A stretch of 64,000 bases of DNA from an uncultured Candidatus Saccharibacteria bacterium (GCA_964610335.1 CAZSVP010000001.1:151057-215056); one strand, 5' to 3'. Positions 10,148 through 28,316 are shown, numbered from the stretch's first letter. Notes: generated by a model not told the origin, from the sequence alone. Made by a program: numbers and translations.

Positions 10148-10416
10148 ACAACCTAGGCGACTTGATTGACAAAAAACAGTCTGCATCCAAATCTGCTCAG
10201 CTGCAGCTCCAGCAAATACGACAGTTGATAGTAAGCCTTACCAATATCGAGCCAGTTAGTATCGGTGTCAAAGACAATCAACTAAATATCAAGGTAGTTG
10301 ATAGTATGCAAGCCAATGAACTTAGGCTGCATCAAACAGAACTACTTGAAGTTGTTCAGCAATCCAATCCGACTATAAATACTATTAGAACAATAGTGTC
10401 CACCAAGTCTAGCTAG
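10144..10416 (+). CDS. Small DUF721-like (RemB/DciA-like) protein downstream of recF
   Basis: 90 aa; overlaps the recF stop; a small gene of this kind is conserved after recF in Gram-positives. Sequence similarity was not verified. Confidence 0.35.
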   Translation: MNNLGDLIDKKQSASKSAQLQLQQIRQLIVSLTNIEPVSIGVKDNQLNIKVVDSMQANELRLHQTELLEVVQQSNPTINTIRTIVSTKSS

Positions 10417-11023
10417 GAGGAGCGCCCTTACCTTCCAATGAACGCAGTGTTTCGTAGATAACGCGCTCAGTATTGGGATTTAAGCCTTGGTTCTTGAAAT
10501 ATTGCATGGCATCAGCTTTGGCCTGCTCGTATGGAAGTTTGGTTATTGTAACTAAGAAACTATCAGTATCGGAGTTGTAGCTAATAGTGTAGTTACTATT
10601 AAAGCGTGGTAATGTCCTTATGAACTGTGCTCGCGGGGAATTATTTCTACCCGTTTTAAAAACCAATGTACTTGATAGTGATCCCCCTGAAGCTGACTGT
10701 ATATTGTTTAGCGATATAATATAAGAAGTATCTTCTGCTAAGGGCTTATTAGGTGTAATAGTAATAGTGTTATTTGCTATTTCTACTAGGTAAGCAAACT
10801 TAGGTGATACCTTGATATTATCTTTGTTCTGATCCAATTTAAGAGGTTGTGAGTAGGTTACAATAATTGGCTTACTCGGATCAAAACCACTAGCATTGTT
10901 GGCTGGAGTTGTGGTTGTAAGTGTGAAAGATTTACTATTACTGCTGGAGATTGCAAACCAAATCCCCAGCGCAATTATCAAAGCTACTACGCCTGCGATA
11001 GTGTATGTGAGCCAGCGATTCAT
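10409..11023 (-). CDS. Membrane-anchored extracellular hypothetical protein (last gene of the hydrolase operon)
   Basis: N-terminal TM helix, S/T/N-rich ectodomain; start overlaps the upstream gene stop. Confidence 0.5.
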   Translation of the reverse strand: MNRWLTYTIAGVVALIIALGIWFAISSSNSKSFTLTTTTPANNASGFDPSKPIIVTYSQPLKLDQNKDNIKVSPKFAYLVEIANNTITITPNKPLAEDTSYIISLNNIQSASGGSLSSTLVFKTGRNNSPRAQFIRTLPRFNSNYTISYNSDTDSFLVTITKLPYEQAKADAMQYFKNQGLNPNTERVIYETLRSLEGKGAPPS

Positions 11024-12027
11024 TTGATCTTACTCGCCATTATAAATATTCCTCCCTGACCCGAAATCAATAAGTTCTTATCTGATGCTATTATCTGGCT
11101 GGCAGACTGTACATAGTCGGGCAGAGTTGTAATACTAGACGAGCTTTTGTTGCTGATATTATAACTCGACAACTTAGTAACACCCTTCTCTACCATAGCA
11201 ACATAGGCCAGGCTATCAGACACTGGATAAAACAAACCGACAGGTGTTACTACATTGGTCTCTATAGTGTTACCAGATAGATTTAGTAGTTTGATATTAC
11301 TATCGGCTTTTTCCTGCAGTATTAGAACGTCTTGAACTTGTCTGTACCCATACAGGCCAGCAACTGTCACGGTATTCTTCTTCTCAAAGGAGTTGTTGTA
11401 GTAGTCTAACTGAATTTTGCCATCAGCGGTGATGTTGCTGGTAATAAAACCATTCTTGTTGGCTAGTACTATATCTATAAAAGTAAAAGTTTGTGAAGAA
11501 GTATTGATTTTGGCCAACCCAGAATCGATTGAATAAAAGCTGATCTTACCAGTATACAAGCTCGTTTCGTATGGCCCATAGACAAATGGATCATTTGGTT
11601 TGAGTGGTTCTAGAACAACTAGATTACCATTACCCCACTTGGTGTATGGTGTAGTGAGATAGGTTTTGCCTAGTGTGCCGTTGCCACCATAGTTATTTAG
11701 ATCAGTTATGACCGTTCTGATAGGATTAGTGTTTTGAATACTAGAAATCATATTAACATTACTTGCCAATTTTGGTTGGAGATCTATCGCTACCGGACCT
11801 ATAAGTTTGTTTTGTTTGGAAGTTTGGTTGTATTGGTAGATATTGGATTGTCCGTCGATGTATGTAAAGTTATCGTTGTTGAAAGTGATTGGTTGAAAGC
11901 TTTGATACTTGTTAATCAACTCAGGTTTGGCGGCTTGTTTGTTTAAGCTAAAGATTGCAAATAGTATCACACCGACAAGTGCTAAGCCGGCTACGACAAT
12001 GATAAACATCTTCTCGCGTTGACTCAT
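11020..12027 (-). CDS. Membrane-anchored hypothetical protein
   Basis: N-terminal TM helix; 4-nt overlaps with both neighbours (operon). Confidence 0.5.
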   Translation of the reverse strand: MSQREKMFIIVVAGLALVGVILFAIFSLNKQAAKPELINKYQSFQPITFNNDNFTYIDGQSNIYQYNQTSKQNKLIGPVAIDLQPKLASNVNMISSIQNTNPIRTVITDLNNYGGNGTLGKTYLTTPYTKWGNGNLVVLEPLKPNDPFVYGPYETSLYTGKISFYSIDSGLAKINTSSQTFTFIDIVLANKNGFITSNITADGKIQLDYYNNSFEKKNTVTVAGLYGYRQVQDVLILQEKADSNIKLLNLSGNTIETNVVTPVGLFYPVSDSLAYVAMVEKGVTKLSSYNISNKSSSSITTLPDYVQSASQIIASDKNLLISGQGGIFIMASKIK

Positions 12028-14516
12028 TGTGTCCCCAGATCAGCACGAAGCTTAGCCATATAGCCAGGTCCAGGGTCAGTATGCCCACGACCAGGTGCTC
12101 CATTCATACAAGTATTGGCTTCAAAATGCCCAAATATGCCCTTACTATTAGGCTCGGCGCAAATTTGTTCATTTTTGATGCCAAATATCTGCATTAGGTC
12201 TTTTACGGTTTCTAGCACAGCTTGGTATTGGGTAGCATTGTTGGTTATCTCGGCCTCGTCAAGGCCATCAATCTCGATACCAATCGAGTGTTTGTTGAAG
12301 CTATTGACGTGTTCGGTATAGGTGTTGAGCGGCTCGACTAGTTGGTAAACCTTGCCTTCGGTGGATATCCATACCTGTACTGAACAACCTTGAGGACCAC
12401 AATTCTTGTTGGAGCGGATAGCGTTAGCAAAGGCCTCGGCGTTGGCTGAGTGGCCGGCAGTATAATGGATTATGATGGTAGTAGGTGTAATGGTGGCACC
12501 CTCAAATGACTTAACTATGGTTGCGTTCTTGAGATTACCGCCCGTGCCATTGCCGCAGCTCACTCCATCGCCGGCTAAGTCTACCATCTTCTGAATCTGT
12601 TCTTTGATGGTGTTGATATAGCTCTCCGTGTTGTTCTCAACTGGTGGAGCGTACTTCATCATGGCATCACGGATTGTGAGCTTGCCATCATCTATATATA
12701 CCTTCTTAAGATAGGTCGGATGGTCATCTTTGGTGCCACCACCATCCAAGCTTATCTCCCAGCTTTCGTACTTAAACCAGCCATCGACTTGAGGCTGTGA
12801 TGCAGCAGCGCGCCGGCCGAAGGCATTTTGACTACCATTGAGAGCTATTCCGGCCGTGCCAAAGCTTGATTCGTGTTGAGCTATAGCAACAACCCAGAAC
12901 GGATTAACGCCGGCGCGTACGGCACCACTGACAAACTTTTCTCCCAAACCACGCATTGGTGAGTTTGGTGGTGAGCCTGTTTCCATGAATTTATTGAGTG
13001 CTTCTCCTACTTTGGCGGCATCATTGATTGTTGGTAGCCTAGTATCGTCCACACATTGACCTGTTCCACTAGCGCTATTGGCAGGACAGTTAGTTGATTT
13101 TGTAACTGTCGTACTAGTACCACCACCATTAATTACATTCTCAACTATAAGATTGGCGTAGGCATCGACACCGGCTGGACTGGTTGGATGAACATAAACT
13201 TCTTGGTTCTCTATGAGGTCTTTGGTATCGACTAAGTCTGCTTTGATGGCGCTCGGATCACCATCAGGGTAGACGGTTTTAAACCAAGATATTACCTTAA
13301 ATCCGCTAGACGACTTTTCTATTAGTGTCTTGTTTTGGCCTTCGTAGGCTTTGTTACGACCTGCAGGCTCAGGGCTATTGGCAGCAAAGTCTACCCAGTA
13401 GACAGCTGCCCCGGGATTATTGTCTTTAATGATCTTCATGGCGGCGTCGACATCTGCTGCAAAAGTAGGACGGTTGTAGGCATTGGTGCCGAGTTCAATT
13501 ACGATAGCTTTGGCAGTTTTGATTTTTTCTGAGTTGTTTTTCATCTCGGTGAGGCCATCGGGCTGAAATGCCGGCGGACCACCAGTGAGTCCACGGCCAC
13601 TCTTGGCAATTATTTCCACCTCGTTCCAACCCTTGGTCTTGAAAAGTGCTATGGTGGGATTGCCTGCAAATGCGGCCAGCATGGAGTCACCAAACATCAA
13701 TACTTTACCAGGACTTTTGTCGCCATTTCCGCTATTGGTGGCACCAGTAGTAGTGGTGGTAGATCCTGGAGTTTCAGCTGCCAAAGTTGAGGGTTTAAAT
13801 GCTGTAGGGTTGCTCTTACTTGATGTGGTAGCTGCCGGTGGTGATGCGTTGCCGTTTGGTTGTCCTATTTGCCGATACCGCTTCAACCCCACAACAATAT
13901 AGTTTGGATCTCCAGGATTGTATATTTGAAAAGCTTTAGCTACTGTACCCTCAGCCACTGGCTGAGTGACTATTGGATCAGCATTGTTCTTTAAAAATTC
14001 TTCTTCGTTGTCTACTCCTAATGGAGGGTTTGGTCCTACCTTGGCATTTTCCTTGAGCCAATATTGAGCAGCTGCTTTAGAAGAGTCTTCAAATTTAGTA
14101 ATGTCACCCCACTCAGTCTTCCAATACTCAACTAGTATTTGAAAAGGCCCTTTTGCATTTTTGTCACTCGTAACATCGGTATTTAGTTTGTTTATATCTG
14201 TGGGAATAGTGCGATAATCATCAGTGCCGTGTTCGTTCATATAAACTGCCGCTAAGACATTGGCACTAGTTTGGGCTGCATTAGCAGCATTGGTTAGCAT
14301 TGTTCTGGCCGGTTCTGGAAAATCACTTGGCAGTGACGAGCTAGTGGTAGAAATTATGTCTGTCTTACCACATGGCACGTCAGTAGCGTCAAACCAATTG
14401 GCACGCTCGTTTTCAAAGTGCCAATCAGCAGCCAATGCCTGCAGTGGCGTGTGTAGCAAGAATGTAATTGTTATTATTGCTAATAAGATAGGCCTTATTA
14501 TTCTAAGAAATGTCAT
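12024..14516 (-). CDS. Secreted multi-domain peptidoglycan hydrolase: SGNH/GDSL-like hydrolase region plus C-terminal N-acetylmuramoyl-L-alanine amidase (Amidase_2/PGRP) domain
   Basis: Signal peptide; FGDSMLAAFAG (GDS(L)-type) block; C-terminal IIIHYTAGHSANAEAF...HSIGIEIDG amidase_2 motifs. Confidence 0.7.
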   Translation of the reverse strand: MTFLRIIRPILLAIITITFLLHTPLQALAADWHFENERANWFDATDVPCGKTDIISTTSSSLPSDFPEPARTMLTNAANAAQTSANVLAAVYMNEHGTDDYRTIPTDINKLNTDVTSDKNAKGPFQILVEYWKTEWGDITKFEDSSKAAAQYWLKENAKVGPNPPLGVDNEEEFLKNNADPIVTQPVAEGTVAKAFQIYNPGDPNYIVVGLKRYRQIGQPNGNASPPAATTSSKSNPTAFKPSTLAAETPGSTTTTTGATNSGNGDKSPGKVLMFGDSMLAAFAGNPTIALFKTKGWNEVEIIAKSGRGLTGGPPAFQPDGLTEMKNNSEKIKTAKAIVIELGTNAYNRPTFAADVDAAMKIIKDNNPGAAVYWVDFAANSPEPAGRNKAYEGQNKTLIEKSSSGFKVISWFKTVYPDGDPSAIKADLVDTKDLIENQEVYVHPTSPAGVDAYANLIVENVINGGGTSTTVTKSTNCPANSASGTGQCVDDTRLPTINDAAKVGEALNKFMETGSPPNSPMRGLGEKFVSGAVRAGVNPFWVVAIAQHESSFGTAGIALNGSQNAFGRRAAASQPQVDGWFKYESWEISLDGGGTKDDHPTYLKKVYIDDGKLTIRDAMMKYAPPVENNTESYINTIKEQIQKMVDLAGDGVSCGNGTGGNLKNATIVKSFEGATITPTTIIIHYTAGHSANAEAFANAIRSNKNCGPQGCSVQVWISTEGKVYQLVEPLNTYTEHVNSFNKHSIGIEIDGLDEAEITNNATQYQAVLETVKDLMQIFGIKNEQICAEPNSKGIFGHFEANTCMNGAPGRGHTDPGPGYMAKLRADLGTQ

Positions 14517-15496
14517 TTGTTATTCTCCGCAATTTGAGCCACCACCACTCCCTGGGAACTATTAAATATCAATGTATTATTGTACTTCACAAAACTCTTC
14601 AGTGGAGGCACAACATAGTTGATTTGGTACAGCAAGGTGGATTTTTGTTGCCCACTTGGGTATTTGCTGACCTGGGTGAGCTTAGGTGTTGTGGCTGCCA
14701 CTAACATACTTTGGTCAGCCTCAACAAATAAGTTTGATAGTAATGCTCCAATACCAGTATCAGTTTTCTTGCCATCAGAAGACAACAAGTAAATCTCACT
14801 ATTAGTAGTAGATTGATTGGTGGATGCGGCAAGTGATGGCGATGCTGTTCTGATATATGATGGATTAATAATCGATTCGATCTGCGTGACAGTCTTGGCT
14901 GCAATGTCTATTCTATTCACTATGGTTGATATATCTAGTCCGCAAGCTAGCAGTATCTGAGTATCCGAGCTGGCAATTACACGAAATGGCATGTTGGTGC
15001 TAGCAATCTTGGTAGTAGAGTTGCTTTGGGTATTGCCCAATAATATTGATTCTTTGACGTCTGGAATAACATCAGTACCTGGCGTACTGGGTTTTGGCTG
15101 TGTAAATACATAATTGCTACCACTACCCACCCAGCCAAAGAAGTCAGATGCCAACACCTTGGTCTGCTTGATATTAATATCATAAATGATGGTTTCTTTG
15201 TTATTACCACTACTTATGAATTTACCGTCATTACTAATACCTACATCACCTATTTTTACACTACCAATTTGATCGAATTGTTTGCTTGATTCGTTATATC
15301 GATAGATATTGTTCTTGCGACTGGCCAACAAGCCATTGGGCGTGATCTGCACATTGTCAAAACCAGATTCCTCGACAAGGTTAAAGTCGAGTGTTTGTAC
15401 TTTGGTAGTACTTTGTTGGGTAAATAGTGTGTATAACAAGGCCAGCACTATGAGTGCCACAAATACAATTAATGCAATTATTATTGGACGCCGCAT
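14513..15496 (-). CDS. Membrane-anchored hypothetical protein (possible beta-propeller ectodomain)
   Basis: N-terminal TM helix; operon overlap. Confidence 0.45.
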   Translation of the reverse strand: MRRPIIIALIVFVALIVLALLYTLFTQQSTTKVQTLDFNLVEESGFDNVQITPNGLLASRKNNIYRYNESSKQFDQIGSVKIGDVGISNDGKFISSGNNKETIIYDINIKQTKVLASDFFGWVGSGSNYVFTQPKPSTPGTDVIPDVKESILLGNTQSNSTTKIASTNMPFRVIASSDTQILLACGLDISTIVNRIDIAAKTVTQIESIINPSYIRTASPSLAASTNQSTTNSEIYLLSSDGKKTDTGIGALLSNLFVEADQSMLVAATTPKLTQVSKYPSGQQKSTLLYQINYVVPPLKSFVKYNNTLIFNSSQGVVVAQIAENNK

Positions 15497-18400
15497 CTTG
15501 CCTTTATATCGTGTTTATCTGGTAACCATTCGCCAGGGTTGAGTGTACGATTGTTCTGATTGTCACCAACTTCAAAATGTAGGTGGTTTCCTGTAGAGTG
15601 GCCAGTACTATCTCCTTTGGCAATCACATCACCTTGTGAAACCTTGGCTCCGACTTGAACCAACACTTCTTGGTTGTGTCCATATAAGGTAAACAAGTCG
15701 TCGGCGTGTTTGATGATTACACTATTACCATAGCCATCGTTTGCTCCAGCCTGCACTACCTCGCCATCAGCCACCGCATAGATATCCGGATATGGGCCAC
15801 CATCGCCTGGTGTCCAATAGATGTCTATGGCCTTGCCGCCACTTGGGTAAGTATGAGGTGGATTACCATCGGCACATCTAGAAATGCCTGTTTTGTCCGT
15901 GCCTACTGGCCATATAAAGCCACCGGGATTCTTACCGCCACTACCGCCACTACTACTACCACTACCAGCATAGAATCCAGCTGGCGGTTTGTCTTGTCCA
16001 AGATCACGAAGCATAGTCATCTGGGCTTTGTAGTATATGTATAGTCGGTAGCGCTTAGCGAATTCTGGATCAATCTTGGCCATTTTCAGAGGATTTGACT
16101 TAGTCATCATTGTTTCGCAGGTGTAAACTTGGAAGAACTCCGAATCTACATTGGGGTTTTCCAATGATGTGTCTGGGTACACTATGTCTGCACCCTCACC
16201 ACCGATGGTAAAACCTGTTCTTATAAATAAATACCTGAGCTGATCAGTAGGCTCTACGTTTGAAAGTGGTACACCTGGAAGGGGCACTCTGGTGAAAAGT
16301 ATTGGCGAGGTGATTTCTTTCTTGAAACACTGGTCGTAGTAGCGCATTTGTTTGATGCGAATATCGTCAGTTTCATCTATGTCTTTCTTGAGTTGCTCTA
16401 TGGCCTTGGCGTTCTCTAGTAAGTTAACTGACTTGAGCTCTGCCTCCGAGAATCCAGCCAGATCAACCTTGAAGTACTTGGCAGTGTCGTTACCGGCTGC
16501 AAACGCAGTGTTATTCTGGCCAGTAGCCACGAAGTTGAGACTGTTACTTAGGCTGGCCAGGTTCTGTAGTGGTGTGCTAACTGATTTTGCTAGGTTGGCC
16601 AAATAGCTCTTGGTACTCTCGACACTAGTGTTCTGTACTGCTATGCGTGAAGCGATCGAGCGTGGACTCTTGGTATCAAATAGTCTGGCGAACAAGCTCT
16701 TGTTTTGTTGTTCTACCCGAGCATTATTTTCTACCTTGATGGCAAGCTCGTTTTGTTCTTGCTCAGTTAAGAAGGCTCCACCGATGGTGCGCATATAGTC
16801 GGAGGTGAGCTGTTCCACACCCATCGATTGGCGGTTGAAGTTGTTGGGACCCGCTTCGGTACCCGACACAGTGCCGGTGGCTGCAATTCTAAACGATGCT
16901 ATCAACATATCTTGTAAACCAAAGTTATTGGGGTTGCCAACTTCAAATATTCCAGCTGATTCAGCGGTTACCTCTGATTTAAATAGTTTATACGCATCAA
17001 GAACCTTATCTTCTCCTAGACTTTGTATAAAACTTCCTATCCACGGTATGTTATTGCCAATTGCCCAAAACGCACAACCACTTCTGAATTTGTCACCAGC
17101 CCTTAAGGCAAACAAAGGACTAACTATGTAGGCTCGGTTGTGCAAAGATTCAGCATTGGCCTGTTTACCTTTGTTGGTGCCATCGACACTAAGGCTATAG
17201 CCGGCACTATCAGCCCAGTTCGATATAGAATTCATGGTGTAGTTGGTTTCTTTGTTACTGTTTTTGTATAAAGCTCCCGAGCCAGAAAGGGATAAGAATT
17301 TCAACCCGTTACGTACCGCTACATCGTGCCGCGTATTGAGTGAGCGGACATAGTTGTCAGGCTCGGTGAACAATGTGTAGTAAGGACACATGGCATCGAC
17401 AACTTGTTTAGGGTCTTGTTCATTCATTTGCTCAGGAAAAGGTAAACCAATCTCTGTGGCCACAGCTTTGTAGTCTATTGTTTCTGGGTCTTCACCTTTC
17501 TCGATCGCATCGTATATCTTGTCGGCAAACTCCTTTATTTTCTGATCATTGGTTTTGGGTGCTTGGTCCTGCTTGCTAGTTACTCTGGAGAGAGTCTTTT
17601 TGAGCAACGCTTCGTCTACTTTCTCTGTTGGTTGGTCCTGTATCTCAGTTTTATCAGTTACATAGCTCAGGTAAGCATCAGAGTTCTTGTTGATAGACCT
17701 GGCATTGGACACACGAGTAGATAGGTTGAACATAGGGTATGTGTTCATGAAGCAATTATTGATGGCAGCAGTTGCTTGATCTAGTGGAATCTCTTTGTTG
17801 GTGGTTTTCTCAAATACTTTGTCAATCAAGTGTATGGTCTTGTGGTCGTAATTGAGATACGGCACAAATGTGAATCGATAGTTACAACTATCGGGGTTGC
17901 CGTACCTCCATTGGGCCTTCTCCCAATCGATGTTGGCTACGATCTCGTCGATACTACCTGGCTCTGGTTTGTTGAGTGTATGGTCAGCAAATGCAGTATT
18001 ATCGTTCTTAATTGGCACGGCGTACCCAAGACGTTCATTTAATTCTCTGGCATACGAAGCTCCGGGTACCCCAATCGCTTCAGCTCCCTGAATCACAAAT
18101 CTTCGAGTAGCCTTGTCGGTTACTACTGTCCTTACAAAATCAAATGGGTTGGCGATAATGCTGGCAAACAAAAACCCAATAAATGCAACAAGTACAATTA
18201 CTGAAGCACCAGCAGCATAAATTGTATGACGTAGTTTCTTATTGGCACCAAGCGACATAGCTACACCTTCCCAATTTTGTTCGGCGGCTTGGGCTAGCGT
18301 TTTAGAAATTGCCTTGGTGCGAGAATCCTCCGATGTTGCACCACCTTGTCTTTTGGACATATCATCTGTGCCTTTTTGGAGATTCTTTTTGGCTTGGTCT

Positions 18401-18810: not shown

Positions 18811-19002
18811 ATATTAACTCTTCCAACTCCAAAAAATTACTACTCTATTGTAACTAAAAGCTAATGGTTAGGCTAGGTGAAAATATACCACCAAACTGTC
18901 TGTGACCAAGGCTATCCATAAATAAGATATGAATTGAGTCCGCTAGATTGCCGATAGTATGCCTGATTTGGTATCATGTTTAATTAACAGTACATAATAC
19001 TT

Positions 19003-19896: not shown

Positions 19897-21797
19897 TGGC
19901 AGCTATTCCAGGTATGCCCAATAAGCCTAAGATCGACCCTAAGGTAAAGGCTGAGCTTGACCGCCAAGCTTCTATCCAAGCTCAAGCCGAGAAGGTTTAT
20001 CGTGAAGGAATTGTAACTCTGCGCGATATAGTAGCTCCTAGTTCGATTGAGATCGAAAGCAACTACATCAAGATTGGCAAACGCTTTGCGCGCACATTAT
20101 TTGTTTACGGTTACCCTCGCAGTTTATTTACCGGCTGGCTATCGGGTCTAATTAATATCGATGAGGTGCTTGATATCTCACTTCATATAGAACCGGTCGA
20201 AAGTCGAGTTGTGTTGGAGAACCTCAAGAAGAAAGTAACCCAGATGGAAGCCAGTTACTCTATTAATGCCGAAAAAGGCAAGGTGCGTGACCCAGGGCTT
20301 GAAGCTGCAATTGCCGACGCTGAAGAGCTACGCGACAAGCTGCAAGTTGGAGAAGATAGGTTCTTCCGACTAGGGCTCTACTTCACTATTTACGGCAAAG
20401 ATCTCGAAGAGCTAGACGATGTGGGCCGACGAATCGAGAGTATACTTGCCACCAGCCTTACCTACACCAAGCCAACCACAGTAATGATGGAACAAGGCTT
20501 CAACTCTACCCTACCGCTTGGAACGGATCAGCTTCAAGTGAAGCGCAACATGGACACTGGCGCTATCTCGACTACTTTTCCATTCACTACGGCTAACTTA
20601 AGCCGCGATGAAGGAATATTATACGGCATCAATCGCCATAACAACGGGTTGGTATTGTTTGATCGCTTTAGTCTTGAGAATGCCAATATGGTGGTATTTG
20701 CCAAGTCTGGTGCCGGTAAGAGCTTTGCTGTTAAACTCGAGTGTTTGCGATCACTGATGTTTGGCACTGAAGTGATAATCATCGACCCTGAGAACGAGTA
20801 CAAGACACTCTGTGATGCCGTGGGTGGTAGCTTCTTACACTTAAGCCTTGCTAGCAACACGCGTATCAACCCATTTGACATCCCTACTACCATCGACCCC
20901 GAAGAGGCCGATAATGCCTTGCGGGCCAATATAATCATGCTACACGGCTTGCTACGACTTATGACTGGCGATATGAGTCCAGCTGAAGAGGCCGACCTAG
21001 ACGTGGCACTTATTAATACCTACTCGCAAAAAGGTATTACCAACGATCCACTTACTCACCAAGCATCACCTCCAGTTATGATGGATCTATACAACACCCT
21101 CAATGCTATGGGTGGTAATGGGCCGGCACTGGCGGCTCGATTACGTCGATACACCGAAGGAACTTTTGCCGGGATATTCTCTGAGCAAAGCAATGTCAAG
21201 TTGGAGAGCACATTTGTGGTATTCAATATTCGTGATCTCGAAGATGAGCTTCGCCCTATTGGCATGTATATAGTACTCAACTACATCTGGAATCGAGTAA
21301 AGACTGAGAAACGCAAACGCATCCTCGTAGTTGACGAAGCCTGGCAACTCATGCAGTACCAAGACTCGGCTATGTTTATGTTCTCAGTTGCTAAGCGCGC
21401 CCGTAAGTACTACTTAGGTCTCACTACTATCAGTCAAGACGTAGAGGACTTCTTGAGCACGCGACTTGGTCGCGCGATTGTAAACAACTCTAGTTTGCAG
21501 CTTTTGCTCAAACAAAACCCTGCAGCTGTAGAAATAGTTAGCCAGACTTTTAAACTCACCAGCGAAGAATCAAAACTACTAAGTCAGTTCCCAGTAGGAG
21601 AAGGGTTGTTTTTTGCCGGCCTAAACCACATTATATTGCGCGTACTTCCCTTCCCTGGTGAAGAACAGCTTATTACCACCAATCCCCAAGCCTTGCTTGA
21701 ACAAGCCCAACAAGAAGCAGCTGATATGGAAGCTATGGAAAAAGCCACCTTGCAGGGCAATTCAGAATCGCAACCAACCAATCCAACTGTTAGCTAG
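19896..21797 (+). CDS. virB4: VirB4/TrbE/CagE-family type IV secretion ATPase
   Basis: Walker A VVFAKSGAGKSFAV, Walker B ILVVDEAWQLM (the DEAW motif is typical of VirB4), plus GYPRSLF...GWLSGL and LDISLHI blocks. Confidence 0.85.
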   Translation: MAAIPGMPNKPKIDPKVKAELDRQASIQAQAEKVYREGIVTLRDIVAPSSIEIESNYIKIGKRFARTLFVYGYPRSLFTGWLSGLINIDEVLDISLHIEPVESRVVLENLKKKVTQMEASYSINAEKGKVRDPGLEAAIADAEELRDKLQVGEDRFFRLGLYFTIYGKDLEELDDVGRRIESILATSLTYTKPTTVMMEQGFNSTLPLGTDQLQVKRNMDTGAISTTFPFTTANLSRDEGILYGINRHNNGLVLFDRFSLENANMVVFAKSGAGKSFAVKLECLRSLMFGTEVIIIDPENEYKTLCDAVGGSFLHLSLASNTRINPFDIPTTIDPEEADNALRANIIMLHGLLRLMTGDMSPAEEADLDVALINTYSQKGITNDPLTHQASPPVMMDLYNTLNAMGGNGPALAARLRRYTEGTFAGIFSEQSNVKLESTFVVFNIRDLEDELRPIGMYIVLNYIWNRVKTEKRKRILVVDEAWQLMQYQDSAMFMFSVAKRARKYYLGLTTISQDVEDFLSTRLGRAIVNNSSLQLLLKQNPAAVEIVSQTFKLTSEESKLLSQFPVGEGLFFAGLNHIILRVLPFPGEEQLITTNPQALLEQAQQEAADMEAMEKATLQGNSESQPTNPTVS

Positions 21798-21808
21798 AAC
21801 TATATAGG

Positions 21809-22690
21809 TTAGGTGCTTTTCTTGACCTGCACAGAAACGCCTTTTTGCAGAGTCGCAGCGATGGCATCGCGACTTAGTCGGTCTATTGGAGTATTATCGC
21901 GTGATGCTAGTTGGGCAAGTGTATCCTGTACCTCTTGTTGTGTCTTGGTATCGCCTGTCACGGGATTTTGCACCGATGGAGTACTAGGAGCTGATGTAGT
22001 TGGTGTTGGTATCGCAGCGAGGTCTTGCTGGAGCTTGGCTATGGCATTGCGGTGCACACCGACCTCAACATTCTGTAGTAACTGCCCTACTTCGTTCGAA
22101 CGACCACTTTGGCTGTCTAGAACATCATCGGTGGGTACTGTTTGACTAACTGGTTGCAAGGCGCTGGCTGGTGTAGCCATCTGGGCAAGTTCGTTGGGCT
22201 GAACTGATTTAGCATCGATCACACGATTGGCTTGTTGTTGTACTTGACTAGTGTCGTCGCGCAACTGAATAGTATCGTCCTTGTAAGCACCGTGAGTATC
22301 GAGTGTGAATGCTAGCTTTTGGAGTTGTCCTTGGCTGTAGTCGCGACTTGGTTCTGGTGCCTTCACTACCTTCGGAGCTTCTTTGATAGATTTGGTATGC
22401 TCGTCCTTGTGCCAGACTAGCTTGCGGGGGCTCATGAAGTACTGTACAGAAGCTGTGAAGTAGTTTTCAAAACTTATACCCTCGCGCTGGATAAAACCTA
22501 ATGCAAACATAGTAAGGGTAATGGGTGCAGCGATAACTATTCCAACCACGATGTTAAAAGGTGCTATTAGACGGATCGCTATAAATCCCCACATCAGGCC
22601 AATTATGACGTAAATAAACTGCTTAACGCTAAGCGGACCGAGGATCTTGTCTTCGGTTTCGACATTGGATGGTACTTTGTATTGGCCCAT
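21809..22690 (-). CDS. PrgI/VirB3-like small membrane protein with an extended C-terminal tail
   Basis: Two N-terminal TM helices; its position next to VirB6-like and VirB4 matches Gram-positive T4SS organisation. Confidence 0.4.
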   Translation of the reverse strand: MGQYKVPSNVETEDKILGPLSVKQFIYVIIGLMWGFIAIRLIAPFNIVVGIVIAAPITLTMFALGFIQREGISFENYFTASVQYFMSPRKLVWHKDEHTKSIKEAPKVVKAPEPSRDYSQGQLQKLAFTLDTHGAYKDDTIQLRDDTSQVQQQANRVIDAKSVQPNELAQMATPASALQPVSQTVPTDDVLDSQSGRSNEVGQLLQNVEVGVHRNAIAKLQQDLAAIPTPTTSAPSTPSVQNPVTGDTKTQQEVQDTLAQLASRDNTPIDRLSRDAIAATLQKGVSVQVKKST

Positions 22691-22712
22691 ATCTTACTTA
22701 CCTAACTCAGGT

Positions 22713-24971
22713 CTACACTTCGGCACGGTGCCTACCCGGTGTATTACCTGAAGCATTATATCTAGCTGTATTACCGGTGCGAAATTTAGGATCCAGGTTC
22801 ACTGTGACATCTACGGTATAGTCCTTGTTGTCATCAGCACCATAGCGGCCTCGGTACTCTGGGTTTACTTGATCTACATTTAAGGCACCGGCATAGCTTC
22901 GTTCACCTGGTTTAGCTGCTTTGTTGAGCACCTTGGAAAGCTTCTCCATATTTGAGTTGAGGTGAGGTAGCTCAGGAAGATTGTGGCGCACGCGATTGGC
23001 CTGCTGTTCTTCTGACTCGGTGTAGCGTTTGGTTCCTTCCTTCTTAGCGGCTTCACCAATCTTACCTTTGCCGCCTGTGGTCTGTATCAGCGTTCGCAGT
23101 GTATCGCCATCCATCGCTTCAATCTTGTTCTTTATTACATCTTCATGTGCCTTCTTTTGTCGTCCACCTTCGGCGATTCGCTTTGCACCAGCTCTTCTCA
23201 ACCCTGGTACGTGGGAGAACTGTTTACCTACGGCAGTGTTATATTTACCACTCAGCTTGGCTAGCTGACCCTCTTGTCGGCTCTTCTCAACCGCCTCGCT
23301 ACCACGTTCGCGGGCACCACCAGCTAGCTTAGCTGAGACTGCTCCTGCGGTGAAGGCCATGAGCTCGCCGCTGAGCTTAAGACACTTAGGTATGAGGAAT
23401 AGTGCCAGTACTGGTATGAGCGCGCCAGCGAGGATTAATAAGTCGCTGCCGCTCGCTGCAGTACCACCGGTTGGTATGGTTAGTCCAATTGTCTGGAGGT
23501 AAGCGCATGTTGTGTTCCCTGTATTGCCCCTACAACCCTCTGCTATTAGCATGGTCGAAATTATGCCTGATATTGCCAGTAAGCCAGTTACCATTGGGAA
23601 CATTATGTTGAGTTTGATGAGATTGGTTCCCCACATACGAAAATATTTGTTTGTAAGAGGTAATACAGACGCTGCAATTGCCAAAGGAGCAACAAGTACC
23701 AATATGTACAAAGCAAACAAACGGAATACCATGTAAATTAAGGCTAGAATAAGTGCTGCTAAAACGCCTATCATCATAAGTAGAGCTAGCAGGAATCCGC
23801 CTACACCTGCCAATATACTTATGCCAGTACTGCCATTGCCAATTCCTGCAACAGCAAATAGTGCTATCTTTATAGGATTTTGATCTATTACAAAACCTCC
23901 ACCTGTAAGTATGTTTGGCACTGCATAGCCCAAGGTATTACCCACGTCGATTGCAAATGCACATATTAGGTAACTAAACTGTGTAAATATAATTGCCGCT
24001 ACGAGCCTAGGTAATAGCCGCTTAATAGTGTAGTTGTCAATCCCGAAGTCTATAAAGTTCATGAAGATAATTATCAAGAATACCAATACATATATGGAGT
24101 TGGCGATAGTAACGACGTTGGAGTTGGCTTGTTGTAGAGTATTGGTGCTACTAAATTGTAGTGGACGAACAATTAGTAGTGATTGCAATGGTGATTCAGG
24201 ATTGATGCAGTAGGTACCATCTGTTGGTGTACAACCATCTTCTCCGGCGGCCTTAAAACCTAATATATTCTGAATAGAGCCACTGACGGACTTAAATAGT
24301 GGACACAATAAAAACCCTAGTGTCCCAGCCGCATCCTGACACGCTTTGTCCTCATTTTCTTGAGCTGTGGCTGCAGCCACAGACCCAGTAACCCATCCCA
24401 GCCATTTATCTATCCAGGGTGCATTTGGGTACTTTGCCTCCCATGCTGCCTTATTGAAGGGGTCTTTATTGCCATCTGCGATTGAAGACGACGGTGTACA
24501 ATCTTCATAATTAATAATAGAGCAAACACCTGTAGGAGCTGGATCGTCCGCCTTGTCGGTATCAGCAAGATCCCCACAATCACTATCGGCGATGCCGCTA
24601 GAACCGTGTAAAGCCCCTCCTGCATCTATTGTAGATTCAGAAATTAAACAAAAACTATTAACCTCTTCATCATCTGCGTTTTTCTTTGTGACTACCAGGG
24701 CATCTCCATCACTACTATCTGGACTTCGGAAAATAAGCGCGGTGGCGGGCGGTGTTTGCATATTATATCGAGCCGTGCTCCAAACATCAAAGTACCAATC
24801 CTTGCTAACACAGTTAATTACTGCTGAGTTCTTCCAATTTGCTGTGTTGTCAGTTGGCCCACAGGCTAGTCCCAGCGCTTTCGCTCGATTCTGGTTAGTT
24901 GCCACAAACAGCCCAGCTAAAGATAGCAAGACAAACAGTGCTAACAACAAATTTTTACTTTTGGTAAACAT
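22713..24971 (-). CDS. VirB6/TrbL-like polytopic membrane protein with a large Cys/Asp-rich N-terminal ectodomain
   Basis: Signal peptide, ~280-aa Cys-rich ectodomain, ~8 TM helices, charged C-terminal tail; adjacent to VirB4. Confidence 0.5.
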   Translation of the reverse strand: MFTKSKNLLLALFVLLSLAGLFVATNQNRAKALGLACGPTDNTANWKNSAVINCVSKDWYFDVWSTARYNMQTPPATALIFRSPDSSDGDALVVTKKNADDEEVNSFCLISESTIDAGGALHGSSGIADSDCGDLADTDKADDPAPTGVCSIINYEDCTPSSSIADGNKDPFNKAAWEAKYPNAPWIDKWLGWVTGSVAAATAQENEDKACQDAAGTLGFLLCPLFKSVSGSIQNILGFKAAGEDGCTPTDGTYCINPESPLQSLLIVRPLQFSSTNTLQQANSNVVTIANSIYVLVFLIIIFMNFIDFGIDNYTIKRLLPRLVAAIIFTQFSYLICAFAIDVGNTLGYAVPNILTGGGFVIDQNPIKIALFAVAGIGNGSTGISILAGVGGFLLALLMMIGVLAALILALIYMVFRLFALYILVLVAPLAIAASVLPLTNKYFRMWGTNLIKLNIMFPMVTGLLAISGIISTMLIAEGCRGNTGNTTCAYLQTIGLTIPTGGTAASGSDLLILAGALIPVLALFLIPKCLKLSGELMAFTAGAVSAKLAGGARERGSEAVEKSRQEGQLAKLSGKYNTAVGKQFSHVPGLRRAGAKRIAEGGRQKKAHEDVIKNKIEAMDGDTLRTLIQTTGGKGKIGEAAKKEGTKRYTESEEQQANRVRHNLPELPHLNSNMEKLSKVLNKAAKPGERSYAGALNVDQVNPEYRGRYGADDNKDYTVDVTVNLDPKFRTGNTARYNASGNTPGRHRAEV

Positions 24972-25016
24972 TACTTATATAATATACGAGTTAATGGTAT
25001 AAATAAAACAATACTT

Positions 25017-25625
25017 ATGGTTAAATCAACATTCTCTCTCAACCGCGCGATCAAACATTGTATCACAGCAGGGCTGCTCGCTGTACTACTATCCGTATTT
25101 GTGATTATTCCCAAAGGTGCTGGCAATGTTGCACAGGCCGCCGATCCATTGCCCAACCAAATACAGGGTGAACTACCTGCTGATCAGAGGTGTGCTGACG
25201 GTTCTAACCCCAGTGTTGCTATTATTGCTGGACGAGCTACTACTATATGTGCCGATGGTAGCAACACACCCTATCAACAGCGGCAGTTGGACCAACAACA
25301 TGCCTTGGAGGCCCAAAATGCAGCACGAGCATTGGCTGATTCTGGTAGCTGCAAGTACATAAGCACCCCGTTTTTGAATGTGTTTTGTAAAGGGGCTGAT
25401 ATCAATAAAGACCCAGTATCGGTGGTGGGCTGGGTCACTACGATTCTTACAGGAGTTATGGGCTTAGCTTTAGTAATAACGTTGCTTATAAGTGCTATTC
25501 AGTTAATATCTGCCGGTGCCAGCCCAGAAATGGCGGCTAGTGCCAAAAAACGTATCAGCATAGCCGCTCTAAGCCTTGGCCTATTGATTGGACTGCAAGC
25601 TATATTAACCCTCATAGGAGTATAG
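25017..25625 (+). CDS. Pilin-like protein with an extended Cys-containing N-domain and a C-terminal TM-loop-TM pilin module
   Basis: Signal peptide; C-terminal ...LISAGASPEMAASAKKRISIAALSLGLLIG matches the paralog motif of the four downstream genes. Confidence 0.5.
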   Translation: MVKSTFSLNRAIKHCITAGLLAVLLSVFVIIPKGAGNVAQAADPLPNQIQGELPADQRCADGSNPSVAIIAGRATTICADGSNTPYQQRQLDQQHALEAQNAARALADSGSCKYISTPFLNVFCKGADINKDPVSVVGWVTTILTGVMGLALVITLLISAIQLISAGASPEMAASAKKRISIAALSLGLLIGLQAILTLIGV

Positions 25626-25629
25626 AATT

Positions 25630-25923
25630 ATGAATCCAGCTTGTACACCAGGAACAACTGGGCTATTTGCCGGGGTTAACACTTGTAGTGTGAATGGATT
25701 TATTACATTGGGTCAAAACGCCATCACGATCCTCATGGGTATTGTGGGTATGATGGCAGTAATATTCTTACTTGTTGGGGCATTTCAGTATGTTAGCTCT
25801 GCTGGCGATCCAGCACGAGCTACAAAAGCACGCAAGACCATCATGTTTGCAGTGGCTGGCTTGGTCTTAGCGCTGTCGACATATGCACTAGTCAACTACA
25901 TTAGCCAAATATTTGGTATATAA
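25630..25923 (+). CDS. VirB2/TrbC-type T4SS pilin paralog
   Basis: TM1-(Y.SSAGDP..ATKARKTI)-TM2 architecture, 97 aa. Confidence 0.6.
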   Translation: MNPACTPGTTGLFAGVNTCSVNGFITLGQNAITILMGIVGMMAVIFLLVGAFQYVSSAGDPARATKARKTIMFAVAGLVLALSTYALVNYISQIFGI

Positions 25924-25932
25924 TATAGAACT

Positions 25933-26226
25933 ATGAGAAACGGTACCCAACTAGCAGCACTTACATCAAATCTACCTGCAAGCCTGCAAAGTACGCCTTC
26001 AAGTATCAATGCAATCGCCAAAGATGTATCAAACATCTTATTCTTCTTGGTTGGAGCAGTGGCAGTAGGCGCCATTATCTATGGTGGTTTGCTTTATGCG
26101 CTTTCTGGTGGCGACCAAGGCAGGCTTGAGTCTGCTAAGAACACAATCCTATATGCGGTAGTGGGGCTGGTGGTCGCGATACTGTCATATGCAATCGTAG
26201 CTTTTGTGATTGGCGCACTTGCTTAG
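25933..26226 (+). CDS. VirB2/TrbC-type T4SS pilin paralog
   Basis: TM1-(LSGGDQGRLESAKNTILYA)-TM2, 97 aa. Confidence 0.6.
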   Translation: MRNGTQLAALTSNLPASLQSTPSSINAIAKDVSNILFFLVGAVAVGAIIYGGLLYALSGGDQGRLESAKNTILYAVVGLVVAILSYAIVAFVIGALA

Positions 26227-26272
26227 GCATGCGGATCTGGAAAAACAAGAACATTATCAAGATGCTACCCTC

Positions 26273-26301
26273 TTGAGCTTCATGAGCACAAGCTGTATAA
26301 T
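26273..26301 (+). promoter_or_regulatory. Sigma70-like promoter inside the pilin array (TTGAGC-17nt-TATAAT)
   Basis: Near-consensus hexamers with 17-nt spacing, followed by RBS AAGGAGAG and ATG at 26349. Confidence 0.5.
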
Positions 26302-26348
26302 GTGAGCCAAACCATATAAATTTGAAACTAACAAGGAGAGATACGTAT

Positions 26349-26708
26349 ATGAAAATGATTACCAAAGTCCAAGCAGTAGCTACAGGCGCAGTTACAAGTC
26401 TGCTAACAGCCGGTACTGCCGTAGCTGCAGCACCACCAGATGTCCAACAAGGCGTGAACGACGCTCAAGGTCAACTAAGTGGCACACCACTTAACCAACA
26501 GGTTGCGGCTGTTACCAACACCCTCTTGCTTATCATTGGTGTGGTAGCTGTGATTATGCTCATTATTGGTGGTTTTCGCTACGTATTCTCACAAGGTGAT
26601 GAGAAGGCAGTCAAAGGCGCCAAAGATACTATTCTCTACGCCATCATAGGTATCGTAGTAGCACTTCTCTCCTATGCCATCATCAACTTTGTAATCGGTC
26701 GATTCTAA
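26349..26708 (+). CDS. VirB2/TrbC-type T4SS pilin paralog
   Basis: Signal peptide, TM1-(FSQGDEKAVKGAKDTILYA)-TM2...GRF; start chosen at MKMITKV after the RBS. Confidence 0.65.
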   Translation: MKMITKVQAVATGAVTSLLTAGTAVAAAPPDVQQGVNDAQGQLSGTPLNQQVAAVTNTLLLIIGVVAVIMLIIGGFRYVFSQGDEKAVKGAKDTILYAIIGIVVALLSYAIINFVIGRF

Positions 26709-26737
26709 ATAATCATATTCTGGTTGGTATCTGGGCT

Positions 26738-27100
26738 ATGAAAAAGTACTCTACTCGAGCTAGCTTGGCGGTAGTATCTGCCACAGTTGTAAATGTGGCA
26801 ATTATGGGCTCACATGCAATAGCAGCTGGTGAGATTAGCACTGGAGCAAGCGCAGCTCAACCTACTGGCTCTGCAAGTAATCTGCAGACTAACATCAAGA
26901 ATATTACCAATACCCTACTAATTGCTGTGGGTGTAATATCTGTGATTATGATCATAATAGGTGGTATTCGCTATGCTCTTTCGGGTGGTGATGAGAACGG
27001 CGTTAAGGGTGCCAAAGATACTATCCTATACGCGGTGATTGGTGTGGTGGTGTCATTGTTGGCCTATGCCATAGTCAACTTCGTAATCGGCCGATTCTAA
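26738..27100 (+). CDS. VirB2/TrbC-type T4SS pilin paralog
   Basis: Signal peptide, TM1-(LSGGDENGVKGAKDTILYA)-TM2...GRF; closely similar to the previous gene. Confidence 0.65.
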   Translation: MKKYSTRASLAVVSATVVNVAIMGSHAIAAGEISTGASAAQPTGSASNLQTNIKNITNTLLIAVGVISVIMIIIGGIRYALSGGDENGVKGAKDTILYAVIGVVVSLLAYAIVNFVIGRF

Positions 27101-27112
27101 CTAGCCAAATAT

Positions 27113-27769
27113 CTACTTCTTGGCAAGCGCCAAGCCCCAAACGGCTTTGGCGCTTGCTTGTTTTAGTACACGGGCACATTCGTTCAAAGTGGCTCCACTT
27201 GTAACTACATCATCTATAACTACTACTGTACGCCCTTTTACGCGCGAGCCAAGTGCCACGAAGTTATCTGTTACCGCCTCATACCGCTGCGTTCGACCCT
27301 GGCCTATCTGCTCGGCTGAGCGCACTCTAAGCAGGGCGCGATGCAGTGGTTGATTGAGCATACTTGCTACCCCACGTGCTAGCAACTCGGCTTGGTTGTA
27401 GCCTCTTTCGCGCATACGGCCGCCACAGACAGGTACGTAGGTCAACAAAATGTCCTTTACGACCGGTATTTGCCGCGCGATTGACTTGGCAAACAAACTT
27501 GCTACATCACGGTTACCATAGTATTTGAGCTGATATATAAGTTGGTCAAGCGGTGGGTCGTAGTAATATGTCACATGTAAGACATCGAGTGAGGTTTTTG
27601 GTCGACAAGATTTGCAGGTTCGGCCATCGCCGTAGTGGTTACAATAAAAACAGGCCGCTCGACGCGGTTTTAGGTGGAGTTGCTGGCACTCAAGACACAT
27701 CAAACTACCTTGGTTGTTGCATACTACACAACAGTCGGGAGCAATCAAGTTGGCTAGTGTTCGCAACAT
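27113..27769 (-). CDS. comFC: ComFC-family competence protein (double zinc ribbon + phosphoribosyltransferase domain)
   Basis: N-terminal CxxC...CxxC pairs; C-terminal VVVIDDVVTSGATL PRTase motif. Confidence 0.75.
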   Translation of the reverse strand: MLRTLANLIAPDCCVVCNNQGSLMCLECQQLHLKPRRAACFYCNHYGDGRTCKSCRPKTSLDVLHVTYYYDPPLDQLIYQLKYYGNRDVASLFAKSIARQIPVVKDILLTYVPVCGGRMRERGYNQAELLARGVASMLNQPLHRALLRVRSAEQIGQGRTQRYEAVTDNFVALGSRVKGRTVVVIDDVVTSGATLNECARVLKQASAKAVWGLALAKK

Positions 27770-27869: not shown

Positions 27870-28316
27870 ATGGCACGTAAACGCGACGAAATTGAAGAAG
27901 AAATATTGGAAGATGAGTTTTTGGATGATGACAAGTCTACTGGCGAGCAATCTGAAGAATGGATGAACGAAGAAGAGTTCGAAGGCCAGCTAGCAGTAGA
28001 TGTTTATCAGACCAAAGACGACATAGTAGTAAAAGCCCCTATTGCTGGGGTTAAGCCCGAAGATATCGATGTGGCTATCTCTGAAGATGTAGTAACTATC
28101 CGAGGTGATCGCAAAGAGCAAGAAGTTGTTGAGAAAGATAACTTCTATGTACAGGAATGCTTCTGGGGAAGCTTTAGCCGCTCAGTGATACTACCTACTA
28201 GCACAGTGGCTGAAAAGGCCGAGGCTAGTTTGAAAGATGGCGTACTGAGTATTCGTATTCCGAAGGTAGTGCCAGAAGACAAGGTCAAGAAGATCAAGGT
28301 CAAGCCTGCGGCCTAG
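27870..28316 (+). CDS. Small heat-shock protein (Hsp20/alpha-crystallin family)
   Basis: 148 aa, acidic N-terminus, alpha-crystallin domain pattern (AVDVY..KDDIVVKAPIAG...GVLSIRIPK). Confidence 0.85.
   Translation: MARKRDEIEEEILEDEFLDDDKSTGEQSEEWMNEEEFEGQLAVDVYQTKDDIVVKAPIAGVKPEDIDVAISEDVVTIRGDRKEQEVVEKDNFYVQECFWGSFSRSVILPTSTVAEKAEASLKDGVLSIRIPKVVPEDKVKKIKVKPAA

Follow-up and report, generated by a model that had tools for sequence, protein, structure and literature searches.

What does a type IV secretion system (T4SS) do in a bacterium when neither a relaxase nor a coupling protein accompanies it? The question is raised by a locus at positions 10409-27769 of a 64,000-nucleotide stretch from an uncultured Candidatus Saccharibacteria bacterium (GCA_964610335.1, CAZSVP010000001.1:151057-215056; the whole stretch is called the window here). 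The locus comprises 15 closely spaced genes, all of them present where an initial annotation had placed them. We consider it very probable that this is a chromosomal, origin-proximal T4SS of the Patescibacteria, the syntenic counterpart of SEML1_0004-0019 of Southlakia epibionticum ML1, with a non-conjugative role in the interaction with a host. The initial annotation had proposed a minimal Gram-positive-type T4SS repurposed by an epibiont, which agrees with the published Saccharibacteria work and with the Southlakia synteny. This interpretation and each element of that earlier proposal are already in the literature, and the locus is one more instance of a known system, not a new kind.

The region was first mentioned by McLean (2020), who described it in TM7x and throughout Saccharibacteria as a VirB4/VirB6/PrgI region accompanied by a GntX gene and an array of 4-6 small secreted proteins. 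Wang (2023; Cell; PMC10633639) found the locus to be essential for epibiotic growth, named the small proteins pilins and reported no relaxase or coupling protein. A survey of the phylum followed (Quinonero-Coronel 2025; Microb Genom; PMC12102498). It places the VirB4 proteins in a clade sister to MPF-FATA and describes TrsD, PrgI/VirB3, VirB6 and VirB2 arrays of 2-11 genes near virB4, proximity to dnaA, and substitute wall hydrolases. A T4SS with a pilin array and hydrolases, lacking relaxase and coupling protein and used by epibionts, has thus been published (PMC10633639, PMC12102498 and PMC12857230). In a 2025 review the Patescibacteria systems form a new branch within the T4SS superfamily, and a 2026 preprint describes tubular structures at the parasite-host interface that may be T4SS pili.

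The core secretion machinery lies in the middle of the locus:

19003-21797, plus strand: trsD-like gene (297 aa) and virB4 (633 aa), divergent from the hydrolase operon across 192 bp
19003-19896, plus strand: TrsD-like protein, 297 aa, soluble, translationally coupled to VirB4 (weak NCBIfam TrsD match and synteny)
19896-21797, plus strand: VirB4 ATPase, 633 aa, the signature T4SS motor (Pfam, NCBIfam and PDB matches)
21809-22690, minus strand: PrgI/VirB3-like membrane protein, 293 aa, with a long hydrophilic C-terminal tail (Pfam PrgI)
22713-24971, minus strand: VirB6-like polytopic protein, 752 aa, extended (sub-threshold TrbL/VirB6 match, topology and synteny)

VirB4 matched Pfam P-loop_TraG (E=5.6e-26) and passed the NCBIfam model NF045971, 'VirB4-like conjugal transfer ATPase, CD1110 family' (375 bits, cut-off 325). 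Its best solved relative is VirB4 of the Firmicute Thermoanaerobacter (4ag5, E=2.9e-51), against 8e-8 for the Gram-negative TrwK, and its Walker A (GAGKS) and Walker B (VVDEAW) motifs are intact. On these matches the motor is of the monoderm, MPF-FATA-related kind. The protein encoded upstream of it matched NCBIfam TrsD very weakly (E=0.0046), and in 70 of the 80 related loci compared a homologue immediately precedes VirB4. A putative trsD next to virB4, a trait of the Patescibacteria T4SS, is therefore present on profile match and gene order. The PrgI-like protein was above the Pfam PrgI cut-off (E=5.6e-14, residues 5-92), carries hydrophobic segments at residues 20-69 and has a homologue in 63 of the 80 loci. 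For the VirB6-like protein, the Pfam TrbL/VirB6 match fell under the cut-off (E=0.0027). A hydropathy scan gave a signal/anchor, about 6-8 hydrophobic segments clustered at residues 283-535 and a basic C-terminal tail. The N-terminal ectodomain of about 260 aa holds most of the protein's 14 cysteines, and in 38 of the 80 loci the corresponding place is taken by a VirB6 homologue. The PrgI/VirB6-like pair (21809-24971, minus strand) converges on VirB4 with a gap of 11 bp. No Pfam match to a VirB8-like/TcpC component was found, and the model of a 335-aa candidate from the neighbouring operon was too poor for use (predicted local distance difference test score, pLDDT, 46.6).

Divergent from the VirB6-like/PrgI pair, an array of five small genes occupies 25017-27100 (plus strand):

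25017-25625, plus strand: pilin class 1, 202 aa, with signal peptide, Cys-containing N-domain and divergent VirB2-like hairpin (sub-threshold T4SS_pilin)
25630-25923, plus strand: pilin class 2, 97 aa, no leader, N-terminal LFxGV-type motif (T4SS_pilin 8.6e-11)
25933-26226, plus strand: pilin class 3, 97 aa, no leader (T4SS_pilin 5.8e-10)
26349-26708, plus strand: pilin class 4, about 119 aa, signal peptide (T4SS_pilin 2.9e-11, TrbC 1e-5)
26738-27100, plus strand: pilin class 5, 120 aa, signal peptide (T4SS_pilin 4.3e-11, TrbC 4.7e-6)

The Pfam T4SS_pilin (PF18895) cut-off was passed by four of the five, and pilins 4 and 5 came just under the cut-off of Pfam TrbC/VirB2. Leader peptides are thus present in pilins 1, 4 and 5 and absent from pilins 2 and 3. 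For pilin 4, the ATG at 26349, behind the ribosome-binding site AAGGAGAG, is the most likely start, not the TTG at 26322 of the mechanical open reading frame (ORF). Pilin 1 can be aligned with the other four and has positional orthologues, first in the array, in relatives; it is the member with the Cys-containing N-domain that the initial annotation had noticed. The S(G/A)GD...AK(D/N)TI motif reported there for the whole family was recovered in pilins 2-5 and is degenerate in pilin 1. For pilin 5, whose hairpin is 64% identical to that of pilin 4, 1752 homologues were found and an alignment of 64 was used for an AlphaFold2 (AF2) model. As the proposed VirB2-type fold predicted, a five-residue SGGDE loop connects two helices (residues 47-80 and 86-119) in the model, whose pLDDT exceeds 90 over the hairpin. 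Profile matches and model together indicate that the array has the predicted VirB2/TrbC pilin hairpin. With profile matches and synteny combined (VirB6 and pilin 1 being sub-threshold), the earlier assignment of VirB4, a VirB6-like protein, a PrgI/VirB3-like protein and five tandem VirB2/TrbC pilins holds.

The 5' flank of the locus in the window reads mnmE, jag, yidC, dnaA (6379-7740), dnaN, recF and a small DciA-like ORF, so that the locus starts directly after dnaA-dnaN-recF, about 2.7 kb from dnaA. Its 3' flank reads hsp20 (27870-28316, plus strand), a MauE-like gene, purN, purL and further housekeeping genes. Since dnaA, dnaN and recF adjoin the locus and the closest VirB4 relatives belong to Saccharibacteria, the window is, by gene content, a piece of Saccharibacteria chromosome at the replication origin. 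The G+C fraction of the locus (0.39-0.47) is comparable to that of the flanking housekeeping genes. No match to the families of type IV coupling protein (T4CP)/VirD4, relaxase, VirB11 or integrase was obtained in any plausible ORF of the 64-kb window. Likewise, none of the nine window ORFs of at least 500 aa (VanW-like, two hydrolases, VirB4, VirB6, PurL, GroEL, valyl-tRNA synthetase and Major Vault Protein-like) is a T4CP. The absence of VirD4, relaxase and VirB11 reported earlier is thereby borne out across all window ORFs, and the relaxase/VirD4 pair that had been named as the mark of an ordinary conjugative element does not occur in the window. Because no T4CP or relaxase family is found and the G+C content is flank-like, the locus is not a foreign island. 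The DciA-like ORF at 10144-10416 (plus strand; 90 aa, weak match at 7.7e-4) overlaps the ends of recF and of the 204-aa gene that follows, and is kept in the related loci L001 and L002.

A VirB4 scan covering one genome per species yielded at least 599 candidates, 571 of them confirmed; all synteny counts were made on the best 80 of the confirmed stretches, and labels such as L001 refer to those loci. Nearly all of the best 80 are Patescibacteria metagenome-assembled genomes with 50-92% VirB4 identity, a few being labelled otherwise (Bdellovibrionales, Oceanicoccus), and the closest are Saccharibacteria (72-92%). In L002, L003, L005 and L007-L009, the genes for VirB6, PrgI, the TrsD-like protein, VirB4, the M23 protein and further exported proteins share one strand, flanked by a divergent pilin array at the VirB6 end and by recF-dnaN-dnaA at the other, the hydrolase end. 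Pilin arrays of 4-6 genes were found in eight relatives; L010 has the same core order, in a stretch that holds no pilin array. Beyond the pilin end, hsp20 follows wherever the stretch reaches, and ComF is there in L002, L003, L008 and L014. The wider dnaA-to-hsp20/ComF block is conserved among relatives.

The same block is known from Southlakia. Its published map (PMC10633639) runs dnaA, dnaN, recF, then 0004 and 0005 (Ig-like), 0006 (two lysozyme-like domains and a cysteine protease), 0007 (1113 aa, M23-like), 0008 (VirB4), 0009 (293 aa), 0010 (PrgI), 0011 and 0013 (VirB6-like) with the NTF2-like 0012 between them, the six pilins 0014-0019, 0020 (Hsp20) and 0021 (ComF). SEML1_0004-0019 thus share with our locus the place after dnaA-dnaN-recF, the gene set, the sizes and domains and, apart from an inversion and a flip, the order, which makes the window locus their syntenic counterpart. 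The 1109-aa protein of the window has the position and size of SEML1_0007, and the 204-aa protein has the position of SEML1_0005 (211 aa, Ig/PEGA-like), a likeness of position and not of sequence. The two loci differ in that the window has trsD-virB4 inverted and the ComF/hsp20 pair flipped. It carries one VirB6-like gene instead of two, no NTF2-like gene between VirB6 and the pilins, and five pilins instead of six. It also encodes a pair of anchored beta-rich paralogues (335 and 327 aa) that the Southlakia locus lacks, and where the Southlakia hydrolase has two lysozyme-like domains and a cysteine protease, that of the window carries Amidase_2 and a probable SGNH module. Transposon sequencing (Tn-seq) in Southlakia showed every T4SS gene to be essential except the NTF2-like SEML1_0012; all six pilins were essential and ComF was not. 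Compared with the Patescibacteria T4SSs of the survey (PMC12102498), no difference in kind was seen, all component traits being shared.

The inversion of the trsD-virB4 pair (19003-21797) is confined to the window and its closest relative, L001, when compared with Southlakia and the other Saccharimonadia loci examined. As read from these gene orders, it split one ancestral operon into three units and created a new divergent control region of 192 bp:

18811-19002, no strand: divergent intergenic region, 192 bp, which arose by the trsD-virB4 inversion

Weak promoter-like sites in or near this region, TTGCCG-18-TATCAT (plus strand, 18948-18977) and TTGAGG-18-TATTAT (minus strand, 19023-18994), are consensus matches only. 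A comparison of the inversion borders gave no inverted repeats other than short matches of chance quality.

On the other side of this region lies an operon of cell-wall enzymes and anchored proteins:

10409-18810, minus strand: hydrolase operon, five overlapping or abutting genes with products of 1109, 327, 830, 335 and 204 aa
15481-18810, minus strand: bitopic M23 metallopeptidase, 1109 aa (Pfam Peptidase_M23, LytM/M23 structures)
14513-15496, minus strand: membrane-anchored protein, 327 aa, with N-terminal hydrophobic segment, a distant paralogue of the 335-aa protein
12024-14516, minus strand: secreted multi-domain peptidoglycan hydrolase, 830 aa (Pfam, PHROG, sequence motifs)
11020-12027, minus strand: membrane-anchored protein, 335 aa, all-beta ectodomain, no family, a distant paralogue of the 327-aa protein
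10409-11023, minus strand: Ig-like (Big_5) membrane-anchored protein, 204 aa, last gene of the operon (Pfam Big_5 E=4.1e-10; N-terminal hydrophobic segment)

The initial annotation had described a five-gene operon with an 830-aa SGNH and Amidase_2 protein and a 1109-aa M23 peptidase. The operon, the Amidase_2 domain (residues 677-817, E=1.3e-17; PHROG amidase match at 672-787) and the M23 domain stand, the SGNH assignment is weaker, and a lysozyme/glucosaminidase-like module had been overlooked. This module covers residues of about 504-643 (Glucosaminidase E=3.9e-4; PHROG endolysin at 504-615, E=9e-10). At residues of about 250-450, Lipase_GDSL matched at E=6.8e-4 (20.3 bits, cut-off 23.6) with GDS and GTN blocks visible, so this part is probably an SGNH/GDSL esterase. 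A signal peptide with an ALA/A cleavage site was read from the sequence. A phmmer search of the hydrolase against the PDB gave nothing at E<=0.01, and no match to the phage-tail-lysozyme family PF18013 was found in it. The 1109-aa protein consists of a hydrophilic N-terminal region of about 190 aa, which would lie in the cytoplasm, a transmembrane segment at 193-226, a large ectodomain and the C-terminal M23 domain (residues 1009-1089, E=1.8e-25). It has an HLH motif, matched LytM and M23 structures with a best E=6e-15, and has homologues following VirB4 in 12 related loci. A phage origin of the M23 and amidase genes, considered on the strength of PHROG endolysin and tape-measure matches, was rejected: the matches cover catalytic domains only, and the operon has its syntenic counterpart in the T4SS hydrolase genes of Southlakia.

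The other products of the operon are less constrained. The 335- and 327-aa proteins are faintly similar to each other (BLASTP E=3e-4), and neither belongs to a Pfam, NCBIfam or PHROG family. For the 335-aa protein, two libraries of billions of proteins yielded only 4-5 homologue clusters, too few to build a family, and the unusable AF2 model mentioned above was made from only 6 sequences. Genes after the M23 protein vary in number and size among relatives. Judged by this variation, the part of the operon that holds the two paralogues is fast-evolving and possibly host-facing. Elsewhere in the window, three FemAB-family genes (peptidoglycan interpeptide-bridge transferases) stand in a row at 44623-47688 (minus strand), adjoining a phosphoglucosamine-mutase-like gene; the trio suggests a branched peptide cross-link in the wall of the Saccharibacteria organism itself, which bears on the candidate target bonds of the M23 enzyme.

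Several points weigh against the interpretation as a host-interaction T4SS. A pilus, a substrate and a direction of transport have not been demonstrated for any Patescibacteria T4SS, and single-gene essentiality of Southlakia pilins in Tn-seq could partly reflect polar effects. Only 64 kb is visible here, and distant T4CP homologues are common in the phylum (PMC12102498). Among the components, TrsD is assigned by a very weak profile match and synteny, VirB6 by a sub-threshold Pfam match, topology and synteny, and pilin 1 fell under the T4SS_pilin cut-off (21.9 against 26.6 bits, E=1.9e-4). With the pilin 5 model as query, Foldseek found no PDB match at E<=0.001, an archaeal conjugation pilus ranking only sixth (E=2); the search is non-discriminating because the helical hairpin fold is too simple. 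A profile of the pilin alignment retrieved nothing from the PDB sequences but transmembrane noise from MacB. The division of the pilins into major and minor subunits, discussed below, is drawn from conservation and promoter position only.

The end of the locus suggests a different use. There, a gene of the ComF family adjoins the pilin array:

27113-27769, minus strand: ComF/GntX-family protein, 218 aa, with Cys-rich N-terminal region and phosphoribosyltransferase (PRTase) domain (TIGR00201, GntX, Pribosyltran)

The protein matched TIGR00201 over residues 14-217 (E=5.2e-27; 95 bits, under the cut-off of 233), GntX (3.4e-22) and Pribosyltran (2.9e-9), and contains 11 cysteines with CxxC motifs. 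Its predicted architecture, an N-terminal zinc-ribbon region followed by a PRTase domain, is that of ComF/ComFC. The whole machine might accordingly import DNA for transformation or for nucleotides, like Helicobacter ComB or archaeal Ced. The neighbourhood of ComF and array is kept in Saccharimonadia relatives and in Southlakia, McLean (2020) had already noted the GntX gene in the region, and VirB4 gives weak matches to CedB and CedD; moreover, the authors of the survey propose import of DNA or other macromolecules (PMC12102498). These matches lie far under the CedB and CedD cut-offs, however. ComF is a transcription unit of its own, since it converges on pilin 5 across 12 bp and pairs with hsp20 in divergent orientation. 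In Southlakia, where competence depends on ComEC, comEC, comF and dprA are dispensable and the T4SS genes essential (Wang 2023; PMC10633639). Furthermore, the whole origin region is syntenic, so that the adjacency may reflect conserved genome architecture only. We regard DNA uptake as unlikely, and as a weaker explanation than host interaction. The initial annotation was right in placing ComFC at the end of the locus, where it is a conserved neighbour; the evidence does not support a functional tie with the T4SS, and ComF is not a part of the machine.

In several relatives another gene lies after the pilin array on the same strand, encoding an anchored protein of about 445 aa (L002 2973-4322, L003 2530-3876, L005 491-1816, L007 580-1902, L008 1800-3110 and L009 25-1362) that resembles an ABC-transporter solute-binding protein by eye only. 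No counterpart was found anywhere in the window, and in the window and L001 ComF adjoins the array directly.

Why should a single locus hold five pilin genes? The initial annotation had seen differentially expressed pilin variants behind a promoter at about 26273, and interchangeable variants could serve against host defences or for different host strains. In favour of this, the pilins of the array share little identity with one another (19-64%), an internal promoter exists, and the authors of the survey put forward the idea of versatility towards different hosts (PMC12102498). To characterize the array, nine arrays were compared, eight of them, with five assignable classes, being used for the count of best matches. 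The best cross-genome match of a pilin was in the same class in 33 of 40 cases. Same-class identities between genomes were 0.38, 0.44, 0.46, 0.69 and 0.61 for classes 1-5, compared with a within-genome mean of 0.38 between array positions; separation is poorest for classes 3 and 5. Class 4 is the most conserved, with a mean hairpin identity of 69% between genomes, and is the candidate major pilin. No recent duplicates were seen apart from pilins 4 and 5. In L002 (5566-6276), L007 (3161-3754) and L008 (4731-5591), classes 1 and 2 form a single two-hairpin ORF; in the window 4 nt separate them. The five pilins are, as these comparisons have it, ancient classes in a fixed order and not recent variants. 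The classes predate the genera compared, they differ in architecture (signal peptide, N-domain, motifs), two of them are fused in three genomes, and all six Southlakia pilin genes are essential, which together make interchangeable variants quite improbable. Bartonella and Anaplasma pathogen T4SSs likewise have several virB2 copies in a row, as the survey mentions (PMC12102498); those copies are read as antigenic or host-range variants, whereas the copies in the window are ancient classes with different architectures in fixed order.

The proposed internal promoter corresponds to a site in the second half of the array:

26273-26301, plus strand: promoter-like site TTGAGC-17-TATAAT ahead of pilin 4 (consensus match and conservation)

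The site lies within the largest gap of the array, and the block from the -35 element to just past the -10 element is almost identical in L001 despite a 40-nt indel in that gap. In each of the nine arrays, the gene behind the largest gap is of the class-4 type. By the rule of the scan tool, six of these nine gaps contain a sigma-70-like site scoring 9/12 or better, compared with 1.1 expected, and none of 2000 shuffles reached six; as the nine arrays are related by descent, this is not an independent-sample probability. A looser, unconstrained count found such sites in that gap in seven of the nine. Over the region as a whole, 18 promoter-like sites were counted against 14.3 +/- 3.6 expected. 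Because this raw count is not above chance, the case for the internal promoter rests on conservation. The promoter more likely sets different levels for class-4/5 and class-1-3 pilins than switches variants. Fixed class order, fusions and a conserved promoter thus argue against interchangeable variants and for specialised subunits with separately set expression. A heteromeric VirB2-type pilus can be tentatively proposed on this basis, in which classes 4 and 5, expressed from the conserved internal promoter, would be the major subunits and classes 1-3 a minor set; classes 1 and 2, fused into one ORF in some genomes, would be a physical pair. We hold this arrangement to be possible, with the odds somewhat against it. 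A minor-pilin set, if true, could prime assembly or form a host-contacting tip, like VirB5 or the minor pilins of type IV pili. Pilin-class orthology, the class 1-2 fusions and the conserved internal promoter are additions to the survey as far as its accessible text goes (PMC12102498).

Proteins with several pilin-profile matches also occur outside such arrays. Loci L045, L047, L052, L053, L054, L057 and L078, which come from other classes of Patescibacteria and gave no detectable VirB6 homologue, encode proteins of about 250-340 aa directly upstream of PrgI with two or three pilin-profile matches (68-81 bits). These proteins could be tandem-hairpin pilins or could stand in for VirB6, and their matches possibly reflect transmembrane composition in part.

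The kinship with conjugation systems remains to be placed. MPF-FATA conjugative T4SSs (pCF10 Prg, pIP501 Tra and CTn2 of Clostridioides difficile) share with the window a CD1110-family VirB4, a TrsD-like protein, PrgI and a VirB6/PrgH-like protein, and they likewise have a large bitopic wall hydrolase in the VirB1 role (PrgK/TraG). The window locus differs from them in having VirB2-type pilins and no relaxase, coupling protein or recognisable VirB8-like protein. It is also chromosomal, at the origin and vertically inherited, and its Southlakia counterpart is essential for growth rather than gene transfer. That the locus is a remnant or active integrative conjugative element with relaxase and coupling protein beyond the window is highly improbable: its VirB4 does pass a C. 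difficile CTn-type NCBIfam model, TrsD, PrgI and VirB6 are conjugation-module families, and T4CP homologues occur elsewhere, far from virB4, in many Patescibacteria genomes, but no integrase, relaxase or T4CP family is present in the 64 kb, the locus lies between recF and housekeeping genes with host-like G+C, its position and order recur across genera and classes as vertical inheritance would have it, the Southlakia T4CP homologue is non-essential, and the survey counts only 109 relaxases phylum-wide and describes Gram-positive conjugation systems as lacking VirB2 pilins (PMC12102498).

Taking the locus as a host-interaction T4SS, its parts can be assembled into a working scheme. VirB4, the PrgI/VirB3-like anchor, the TrsD-like protein and VirB6 would form the membrane translocon or platform, and membrane-inserted pilins would be extracted by the VirB4 platform and polymerised into a filament or tube. 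In this structure pilins 4 and 5, with their own promoter, would supply the bulk and pilins 1-3 specialised minor subunits, pilin 1 presenting a surface-exposed Cys-loop domain. The bitopic M23 protein may play the VirB1-like role of PrgK/TraG-type hydrolases, as judged from its family. The four-module secreted hydrolase is predicted to cut peptidoglycan, and its SGNH module may strip O-acetyl groups that protect host walls. Between them, the hydrolases could open the epibiont's own wall, the wall of the host, or both. By analogy with Southlakia, the assembled machine would be an epibiotic contact conduit for effector export or import of host macromolecules, and not a conjugative apparatus.

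Such a machine is of wider interest. No T4SS other than that of the Patescibacteria is known to be essential for its carrier's growth, and no other monoderm T4SS is known to have VirB2-type pilins. The Patescibacteria system is also the leading candidate for the means by which a large share of uncultured ultra-small bacteria tap their hosts. The class order, the class 1-2 fusion, the internal promoter and the tolerated trsD-virB4 inversion give modest hints on pilus composition and operon structure.

Two further features of the window were noted away from the locus. At 60312-62129 (plus strand), a 605-aa ORF has a Major Vault Protein shoulder match (1.5e-25) and vault repeat domains; the stretch has 65% G+C, compared with about 45-50% elsewhere, and this vault-protein-like gene of a Saccharibacteria genome was probably acquired horizontally. 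Descriptions of Saccharibacteria usually say that they cannot make nucleotides de novo. At 29137-33813 and 51440-52561, the window encodes purN-type (formyl transferase), purL-type (formylglycinamide ribonucleotide amidotransferase) and purM-like (aminoimidazole ribonucleotide synthase-related) domains; the purL-type gene has a G+C content of 59%, and the purN- and purL-type genes are common to the window and L001.

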